A stretch of DNA of 64,000 bases, taken from Rhodobacter sp. Lineage in GTDB: Bacteria > Pseudomonadota > Alphaproteobacteria > Rhodobacterales > Rhodobacteraceae. The DNA lies in NCBI GenBank assembly GCA_027484985.1, contig JAIXRW010000056.1:2814-66813 (forward strand). Reading direction: 5' to 3'. The position numbers and the translations under genes were made by a program. Below are positions 20,903-22,225 of this stretch, piece after piece (the stretch's first letter is position 1; each line of letters starts with the position of its first letter). Under the pieces are notes generated by a model. That model did not search any database. It worked only from the letters and a program-made list of their open reading frames with translations, and was not told the DNA's origin.

Positions 20903-21400
20903 ATGTCCAGTCCGACAGCCAGGCCCAAATGGGTCGATGACCTGATCCTTGGCCTCGGCGCCGAGATGGGCTTCGAAGGCCTGTCCCTCGTTGATGACGT
21001 GCTTGAACTCGATTTCGCCGGAACGGAACTCGGCCTGTTCTTCGTCGCCCAGACCCCGCTGGCCGGTCCCTCGATCCTGCTCAAATCGGCGCTTGACCTT
21101 CCGCTGCATCTGCCCGCGCCGATCCTCGCGCTTCTGATGGACATGAACCTTTCGACCTTCGCCGCGGGGCGCGGGTTCGCAGCCCTTGATACCGGCTTCG
21201 GTTTCTGGGTCTGGACCGACCGGATCGAGCTTGCCGGTCTGACCCCGCCCCGGTTCCGCCTCCGTCTCGAACAGGCCGCCACCGCCGCAAGAGACTGGGC
21301 CGCGCGCATTCCCGACCTTTTGCAACAGGCCTCCGCGCCCGACCAACCCGCAGACGCCCGTCCCGAACCGGACGATACCAGCATCCTTTTCCGCCTGTAG
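20903..21400 (+). CDS. small acidic protein, CesT/class-I type III secretion chaperone-like
   Basis: ORF track 20894..21400. ATG at 20903 has AGGAG 8 nt upstream. 165 aa and acidic. The pattern [10 protein letters not shown]...[18 protein letters not shown]...[21 protein letters not shown]....GRGFAALDT...[16 protein letters not shown]...[11 protein letters not shown] resembles CesT/SycE-type chaperones. Confidence 0.45.
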
Positions 21401-21409
21401 GAGCGATCC

Positions 21410-22225
21410 ATGGGAAGCAACATCACCCTGCAAAACCAAAGCCTCGCCAAGATCATGAACAGCGCCTCCTTCGGCGTTGTCTCGTCGTCGGGCGAAGGCA
21501 ATCTGAAGAAAAGTTCTCTGTTCGAGGGGCTGGCGATCATCCGCTCCAAATTCAGCAGCGATTACCAGAAGACGAATGTTCAGGCCCGCACCGAATTTGT
21601 CAGCAACCTGATCAAGGAATTCGGCTTTGATCCGACAGGCTCCAGTGCCGCAAAGCTCAAAGAAGACCTGTGCGAGGGTGATATCGGGAAAAAACCGCTG
21701 TCCATACGCGACGCGCAAAAGATCATCAAGGATATCGCCACACAGACCAAACTGATGACCGAAACCAAAAAGGCGAACCAGGATTACAATCTTGAAGAAA
21801 TGACCCGCCTCGCCCAGCAAACGCTCGCCGATCCCAAGATGTTCACCGAAGACATCGGCGTCGTCAGCCGCGGCGTGCTGAAGAACAACCTGATCTCGAT
21901 CCGCGACAAGTCCGGCAGCAATGCGATGCCCGAAATGCTGAAAGCCGTGGAAAGCTGGCTGACCCTTGGCGGAACCGAAAAGAAACCTGGCCTCGCGGAA
22001 ACGATCATCAGGGAAATGTTTTCCATGCCCGACCGGTCCGAAGCCGTCGGAAAGATGCACGAAAAACTCGTTGACGTCACCTCGGACTACAACACCGTCA
22101 GGGGCAATCCGGAAGCGATGTCGGAATTGCGCGACTACGCCCTTGAACTGGTCAAGGAATACAAGCTCGACCCCTCCGAAGAATCGATCACCTCGCTCCT
22201 GCGCGATGCGCAGGTTCCGCTGTAA
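21410..22225 (+). CDS. hypothetical hydrophilic 271-aa protein, lower GC, effector-like N-terminus
   Basis: ORF track. GGAG of its SD overlaps the upstream stop codon (TAGGAGcgatccATG), so it is translationally coupled. No signal peptide or TM segment. Ser/Asn-rich N-terminus with no acidic residue before position 29. Visibly AT-richer than its neighbours. No family recognised. Confidence 0.6.
   Translation: MGSNITLQNQSLAKIMNSASFGVVSSSGEGNLKKSSLFEGLAIIRSKFSSDYQKTNVQARTEFVSNLIKEFGFDPTGSSAAKLKEDLCEGDIGKKPLSIRDAQKIIKDIATQTKLMTETKKANQDYNLEEMTRLAQQTLADPKMFTEDIGVVSRGVLKNNLISIRDKSGSNAMPEMLKAVESWLTLGGTEKKPGLAETIIREMFSMPDRSEAVGKMHEKLVDVTSDYNTVRGNPEAMSELRDYALELVKEYKLDPSEESITSLLRDAQVPL

Follow-up and report, generated by a model that had tools for sequence, protein, structure and literature searches.

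What is a gene for a protein resembling type III secretion chaperones doing beside a partner gene of no recognised family, in a stretch of DNA with no secretion machinery nearby? This question was raised by two adjoining open reading frames, ORF1 and ORF2, in 64,000 nucleotides of Rhodobacter sp. DNA (positions 2,814 to 66,813 of contig JAIXRW010000056.1; this whole stretch is referred to below as the window). An earlier interpretation made from the letters alone (the sequence-only reading) had proposed that ORF1 encodes a chaperone of the CesT type and ORF2 its effector-like substrate, and that the two were acquired horizontally as a cassette. Our preferred answer, which is tentative and to which we give a probability of roughly 0.4, is that the two genes make up a self-contained operon for a chaperone of the class IA type and its client, the latter most likely being exported via a type-III-type apparatus.

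The gene pair and its products

The features of the pair are as follows.

20903..21400, plus strand: ORF1, gene assigned to the CesT family, 165 aa (Pfam PF05932, family alignment)
21398..21409, plus strand: ORF1/ORF2 junction, at which the ORF1 stop codon TAG overlaps the ORF2 Shine-Dalgarno sequence GGAG (sequence)
21410..22225, plus strand: ORF2, whole gene, 271 aa (open reading frame)
21410..21754, plus strand: ORF2 residues 1–115, conserved N-terminal domain that defines the family (alignments of the partner family, AlphaFold2 model)
21755..22225, plus strand: ORF2 residues 116–271, helical, lineage-variable C-terminal region and putative functional part (AlphaFold2 model, family alignment)

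Analyses of the ORF1 product placed it in the CesT family, as judged by its sequence. The protein (17.8 kDa, isoelectric point (pI) 4.35, identical to public gene call P0004) falls within the 15–20 kDa and pI 4–5 by which class I chaperones are defined (PMC13466201). It matched Pfam PF05932 (CesT, clan CL0097) with 22.9 bits against a gathering score of 22, over profile positions 3–118 of 119, and precomputed PF05932 annotations were present on its relatives. When the chaperone family was aligned with members from every context found (nine sequences; alignment A2), CesT was matched by eight of the nine, with a best expect value (E) of 1.1e-12, and the only other Pfam return across the nine was one weak match to DUF5333. 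A search of the whole Protein Data Bank (PDB) with the family profile identified just three proteins, all of them class I chaperones of type III secretion systems (T3SSs) and all aligned over nearly their full length: ExsC (3kxy; E = 0.023, residues 6–129 of 133), VecA (E = 0.086, residues 8–151 of 157) and ShcA (E = 0.78). The CesT-like character claimed in the sequence-only reading was thus borne out. The Pfam scan of ORF1 returned no match to YbjN (PF10722) at E <= 10 and gave CesT alone. A scan of metagenomes with the chaperone motif yielded two weak partial matches.

The members of the chaperone family had an invariant G-x-WVW-x-DR core. All of them also had an acidic, Pro-rich tail, which is probably disordered, followed at the extreme C-terminus by a conserved hydrophobic-Arg-hydrophobic peptide (LFRL or MIRV) in which the Arg is invariant (ORF1 residues ~145–165, window 21335–21397). 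We know of no counterpart of this tail in the class I chaperones described so far. The peptide could be a docking or autoinhibitory element.

The pairing of the two genes was conserved wherever it could be observed. A CesT-type gene (~155–166 aa) lay directly upstream of the partner gene in each of the ten contexts in which the upstream flank is covered (the window, L001, L011, L019, L092, L093, L094, L095, L097 and L100/L102), with a spacer of 9–48 nt, and these spacers, with motifs like a Shine-Dalgarno sequence, were kept in eight relatives. The ten contexts came from at least three unrelated neighbourhoods. Among assemblies, the pair is also carried by the metagenome-assembled genome JAWKXK01 (Paracoccaceae bacterium ABC1.181, protein MEZ5753940.1). 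A chaperone gene beside its partner, as the sequence-only reading had it, was therefore found in every such context, and a chaperone encoded beside a single cognate client is the arrangement by which class IA is recognised. Across 21 pairwise comparisons, identity between chaperones was correlated with identity between partner N-terminal domains (r = 0.84). As these pairs are not phylogenetically independent, what the correlation demonstrates is co-inheritance; co-evolution would be consistent with it.

At the junction itself, the ORF1 stop codon (21398–21400) shares a nucleotide with the GGAG at 21400–21403, and the ORF2 ATG lies 9 nt past the stop. ORF1 has its own AGGAG (20890–20894) upstream of its ATG. 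The description of two genes divergent from proS, 9 nt apart and with a Shine-Dalgarno sequence overlapping a stop codon, had been exact in its coordinates. The overlap and the short spacer indicate that ORF1 and ORF2 form an operon, and translational coupling is probable. The ratio of nonsynonymous to synonymous substitution rates (dN/dS) was 0.20–0.34 for both genes in the closer comparisons. Together with their conservation in relatives, this shows that both reading frames are real genes, each subject to purifying selection.

The ORF2 product was found to be hydrophilic (pI 5.5, grand average of hydropathy (GRAVY) –0.44), with 10% Ser and 9% Lys against a background of 2.9% Lys. Its maximal 19-residue Kyte-Doolittle average was 0.48, which indicates no transmembrane segment, as had been expected. 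The earlier remark that there is no acidic residue in the first 28 positions held for ORF2, whose first acidic residue is E29, and for its three closest relatives; it did not hold across the family. The first 25 residues of the ten partner members contained 9–14 S/T/N/Q/G/P residues and 0–2 acidic residues, a composition that alone is not specific for a secretion signal. Residues 1–9 of ORF2 were coil in the AlphaFold2 (AF2) model.

Database searches showed the family of ORF2 to be an orphan with very few members. Three relatives came up when 5.8 billion proteins were searched by a word index, and seven when 1.84 billion cluster representatives were searched exhaustively with an HMMER profile; a metagenome scan with the partner family found nothing. 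ORF2 had no match in Pfam, NCBIfam, PADLOC, PHROGs or the PDB sequences, in agreement with the earlier statement that the 271-aa protein belongs to no recognised family. No DNA-binding, RNA-binding, toxin, nuclease or enzymatic domain was identified by Pfam in any partner, and the profiles of the whole partner family and of its N-terminal domain gave only chance-level matches to the PDB (CLIC2, fibronectin-binding protein, Max, and Map at E = 0.25). Weak Pfam matches of single members (SicP-binding at 0.011, P22_gp7, HhH-GPD) were treated as chance.

Alignment of the partner family (A3) showed that the N-terminal ~110 residues are well conserved and that length and content differ beyond them. 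The partner from L100, a 17.7 kb bioreactor contig, shared solely this N-terminal domain with the family (E = 2.7e-20). In the L100 (6295–7482) and L102 (1094–2284) partner, the domain is followed by a region rich in Pro, Lys and Glu, in which a unit of ~85 residues is repeated in tandem almost perfectly (Smith-Waterman z = 43). The L019 partner had a duplicated helical module of ~50 residues (z = 10). A two-copy helical module inside ORF2 of the window was also considered and was unsupported, with no internal repeat detectable (z = –1.1).

The AF2 model of ORF2, made from a nine-sequence alignment, was all-helical bar a short hairpin and of moderate confidence, with a predicted local distance difference test score (pLDDT) of 75 and a predicted template modelling score of 0.44. 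The N-terminal domain was modelled as helices and the short hairpin, with a pLDDT of 65–89. Foldseek comparison of the model with the PDB and BFVD identified nothing at E <= 0.001. The PDB match of highest probability (0.80) was the effector chain of the VepA-VecA complex, over 103 columns at a root-mean-square deviation of 5.9; it ranked second by E-value and, at E = 0.6, was not significant. The chaperone profile and the ORF2 model thus matched different chains of the same entries, PDB 9ux0/9uwz, each match being insignificant alone (E = 0.086 and E = 0.6, respectively). The sequence profile of the ORF2 N-terminal domain did not find VepA. We regard the coincidence as a lead and not as a result.

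Setting, base composition and history of the segment

The pair lies in a chromosomal setting with the following features.

19401..20738, minus strand: proS (prolyl-tRNA synthetase), conserved left flank, divergent from the pair; the ATG at 20738 is the likely start, giving 445 aa (open reading frame)
20739..20902, no strand: divergent intergenic region between proS and ORF1, 164 bp, with a presumed promoter (sequence)
20778..22364, no strand: variable segment of 1,587 bp that holds ORF1 and ORF2 (blastn boundaries against L012)
22428..23513, plus strand: AI-2E family permease, conserved right flank (Pfam PF01594 on the identical gene in L002)
23510..24181, plus strand: Hda-like gene after the permease (Hda_lid match)

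A scan for the sigma-70 consensus upstream of ORF1 gave no site. By its permease gene, the host belongs to the Gemmobacter/Rhodobacter group of Paracoccaceae. The proS gene neighbours the AI-2E permease and hda across Paracoccaceae, with a gap of ~130 bp to >4 kb between proS and the permease at 80 syntenic loci. The closest genome was that of Paragemmobacter straminiformis (L012), whose permease was 91% identical to that of the window; proS was 94% identical to the window's in both L012 and L019. Homology to L012 ended at 20777 and restarted at 22365 (blastn), and L012 had 203 bp at the site where the window has the 1,587 bp with the pair. The flanks of the segment had no meaningful direct or inverted repeats and no mobile-element signatures or genes. 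Nothing was found for the pair by plasmid tblastn, by PADLOC or PHROGs, or in two scans of viral contigs.

The gap between proS and the permease (window 20739–22427; compared across L012–L091) was observed to be a general variable spot in Paracoccaceae. Other cargo at this site comprised a fasciclin-domain gene in L013, L071 and L095 (with a remnant in L001), pentapeptide-repeat proteins in L069 and L085 (the latter at only 51% GC), cytochrome b561 with a LuxR-like gene in L033 and others, and an M20 peptidase in L086. When the larger gaps of other genomes were checked for a divergent pair, L019 was the only one that had it, and the remaining gaps held unrelated cargo.

Divergent alleles of the pair were found at this same site in three other lineages. 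Identities to the window's chaperone and partner were, respectively, 69% and 62% in L001, 49% and 35% in L095, and 36% and 30% in L019, with the flanking permease ~85% identical to that of the window in all three. In comparisons of the window with L019 and L095, dN of the pair was 3–6 times that of the flanks and dS ~2 times that of the flanks; in the comparison with L001, dS of the chaperone gene equalled that of the flanks. Gene-wide positive selection was not seen, dN/dS being <1 in every comparison, with dS saturated for the distant alleles. Either recombination has exchanged alleles at the site for divergent ones, or evolution of the resident pair is very rapid. Based on the divergent alleles at one site in several related lineages, the pair is an old polymorphic resident of the site and not a recent import.

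Measurement of base composition led to a similar view of ORF2, which had been described as compositionally foreign with about 50% GC. The gene has 54.8% GC (window, 66%; ORF1, 0.65), and its GC at third codon positions (GC3) was host-like, at 0.74 for ORF2 and 0.77 for ORF1 against a window mean of 0.81 (standard deviation 0.04). The deficit was confined to codon positions 1 and 2 (GC of 0.53 and 0.38), as a result of the protein being rich in Lys, Ser, Asn, Ile and Glu. The partner gene had a GC of 0.52–0.59 and a GC3 of 0.71–0.81 in the seven relatives measured. Since all seven show the same pattern in their own genomes, the low GC is a trait of amino-acid composition in the family and not the mark of a foreign donor. 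Every member found sits in a high-GC context, with synteny of the Paracoccaceae type at three loci.

The chaperone-client reading and its rivals

In the reading that we favour, ORF1 and ORF2 would be co-transcribed and probably translationally coupled, and ORF1, presumably as a homodimer, would bind the conserved ~110-aa N-terminal domain of ORF2 during its synthesis. Binding would keep ORF2 soluble and competent for hand-over. The protein would then be exported by a type-III-type apparatus encoded elsewhere (an injectisome if present, otherwise the flagellar export gate), with its variable, fast-evolving helical C-terminal part carrying the activity. We infer the binding of ORF2 by ORF1, the dimerisation of ORF1, the export of ORF2 and the choice of machinery, and we propose the N-terminal domain as a chaperone-binding, and possibly export, module. 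A conserved head with a variable C-terminus is known from T3SS effector families, in which it arises by terminal reassortment. Export was ranked as the most likely fate of ORF2 based on its conserved head with swappable tails, its polar N-terminus, its hypervariability and its patchy distribution.

Several observations weigh against this reading. No T3SS, flagellar, type IV secretion or type VI secretion gene was identified by Pfam in the 64 kb window, where essentially all gene calls were covered (the calls leave 13466–14515 and 42343–43941 uncovered), so that the absence of secretion machinery nearby, as described in the sequence-only reading, was confirmed. The window's products include propionyl-CoA carboxylase, ParE, Lol transporter components, ThuA, ProS, the permease and Hda, as well as Ppk, Ppx, MetG and proteins of sugar ABC transport and polyol metabolism. 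Secretion genes were likewise absent from the surroundings of the L100 pair (16 kb) and from the P0011 context (6.4 kb). Pairs of class IA are often encoded far from the injectisome, and the local absence of secretion genes therefore does not settle the matter of export. The partner's N-terminal domain, for which a folded, helical structure is predicted, is better conserved than any other part of the family, and classical chaperone-binding domains are not known to resemble one another in sequence between effector families. Chaperone-binding domains are reported to carry a beta-motif, [LMIF]xxx[IV]xx[IV]xN, which is attributed to Lilic et al. (2006) and is said not to be universal among effectors; in its strict form it was absent from the first 120 residues of all ten partners, and the sole recurrent relaxed match falls in a predicted helix. 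ORF2 had no significant sequence or structural match to any known effector. For ORF1, the single-sequence AF2 model was unusable (pLDDT 39.7), which leaves its fold to be judged from sequence. The order of elements in this unreliable model (H,E,E,E,E,H,E,E,H) was compatible with the alpha-beta-beta-beta-alpha-beta-beta-alpha fold of class I chaperones, which form homodimers, and Foldseek with it gave nothing significant, only noise. Finally, no Rhodobacterales genome in a published survey table has a T3SS, and injectisomes are uncommon in the order (PMC2702493); a search of the literature on CesT in Rhodobacterales or T3SS in Gemmobacter found nothing relevant beyond that survey. CesT-family proteins are also known from bacteria without a T3SS (PMC13466201).

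The alternative that we consider nearly as likely as export is a purely cytoplasmic module, in which the CesT-fold protein would act, free of any secretion, as a dedicated stabiliser, adaptor or partner-switch for ORF2, much as in CesT-CsrA, in regulation of the ExsC-ExsD/ExsE type or in the YbjN-like DR1245-DdrB pair. The contexts seen have no secretion genes, the host clade is free-living (freshwater and bioreactor samples) within an order poor in injectisomes, the best PDB profile match is ExsC, a regulatory chaperone, and the prediction for the N-terminal domain of the partner is a folded, not an extended, structure. In addition, the CesT family occurs in bacteria that lack a T3SS, and its fold has been co-opted repeatedly, as in CesT-CsrA and DR1245 (PMC13466201). 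Were the host genomes found to lack an injectisome, such a module would become the more likely explanation. However, a hypervariable, modular, repeat-bearing C-terminus and a sporadic presence fit an outward-facing or conflict protein better than a housekeeping regulator, the partners have no detected nucleic-acid-binding or enzymatic domain, and ORF1 matches CesT and not YbjN. In a further and less likely reading, the pair would be a CesT chaperone-client module in injectisome-less bacteria, here free-living freshwater Paracoccaceae, with the N-terminal domain as a new, portable docking and export module for interchangeable C-terminal cargo that is routed via the flagellar export gate or an unrecognised pathway. 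The LFRL/MIRV peptide could then be a docking element.

Two further explanations are far less probable. The idea of a horizontally acquired cassette survives in part, in that the pair occupies a variable segment that is missing from the closest genome, and the comparison of proS-permease synteny that had been proposed earlier found just this. A fresh import from a low-GC donor might also be read from the GC of ORF2 relative to the window and from the other cargo at the site in other lineages. It is largely refuted by the same comparison, which found divergent alleles at one proS-permease site in the window, L001, L019 and L095, and by composition: GC3 is host-like, the deficit is limited to codon positions 1 and 2 and recurs in all seven relatives measured, ORF1 is normal in GC, and every member lies in a high-GC context. 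The segment is also without repeats, an integrase, or phage or plasmid matches. About as improbable is a toxin-immunity, toxin-antitoxin or defence pair, with a small acidic protein neutralising a larger one. A two-gene operon led by a small acidic gene, rapid evolution, patchy distribution and a variable site would suit such a pair, and the ORF1 model had weak, non-significant Foldseek matches to toxin-antitoxin proteins; these matches are meaningless given the pLDDT of that model. There was no PADLOC match at E <= 1 and no PHROG match, the partners have no toxin, nuclease or enzymatic domain, their C-termini include low-complexity Pro/Lys/Glu repeats that are unlike toxins, and ORF1 clearly groups with the CesT family.

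Relation to known systems and other features of the window

The chaperone-client reading is perhaps best appreciated by comparison with established class IA pairs (SycE-YopE, SicP-SptP, ShcA-HopA1). The window pair resembles these in having a small acidic CesT-family protein encoded next to a single partner gene, and in a hydrophilic partner without transmembrane segments whose N-terminus is polar, whose N-terminal part is kept and whose C-terminus varies. It differs in having no injectisome genes near it, in an order that rarely has them, and in a partner whose strongly conserved N-terminal domain is, by prediction, folded and which has no beta-motif and no recognisable effector domain.

Another parallel is VecA-VepA (VepA is also named VopQ) of T3SS1 of Vibrio parahaemolyticus, in which the chaperone aligns to our family profile over approximately its full length and the effector is the highest-probability structural match of the ORF2 model, both matches being below significance. 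VepA stays largely folded when bound by its chaperone (PMC13466201), a bound state that would fit a folded ORF2 N-terminal domain. However, VepA is >400 aa long, works with a known T3SS and has no sequence-level similarity to ORF2. ExsC of Pseudomonas aeruginosa, the best profile match, binds the small partner ExsE and takes part in partner-switching; unlike ORF1, it acts in a T3SS regulon that also encodes ExsD, ExsA and ExsE, and the window locus has none of these three. YbjN and DR1245 show the clan CL0097 fold in use without an injectisome, and DR1245 binds a cytoplasmic partner (PMC13466201). In contrast, ORF1 matches PF05932 and not YbjN, and YbjN genes are not usually followed by a hypervariable partner gene.

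A 2026 review (PMC13466201) counts among the open questions the single or repeated origin of class I chaperone activity and the role of CesT-family proteins in bacteria that have no T3SS. The locus offers a clean minimal test case, as it has a CesT gene locked to one orphan client family with a delimited, conserved N-terminal module, together with an environmental host clade, a housekeeping context, natural presence/absence variants and divergent alleles at the same site. In host genomes without an injectisome, a class IA chaperone and its client would be seen to serve outside injectisome-based secretion; in genomes that have one, ORF2 would represent a new effector family in an order whose T3SS biology has hardly been explored. 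In either case, the practical significance is modest for now.

Elsewhere in the window, four open reading frames had no Pfam match (E <= 0.001 or 0.0001), at 18600–19178 (plus strand), 14516–14926 (minus strand), 40230–41276 (plus strand) and 5053–5454 (minus strand). Among these, only 14516–14926 and 5053–5454 passed the coding-composition filter, and the product of 18600–19178 appeared by eye to be a multi-pass membrane protein. The sole Rfam match in the window was a COG3860 RNA motif (RF02940; 70.7 bits, E = 9e-14) at 24386–24440 on the plus strand, just upstream of a DUF2087 gene at 24528–25073.

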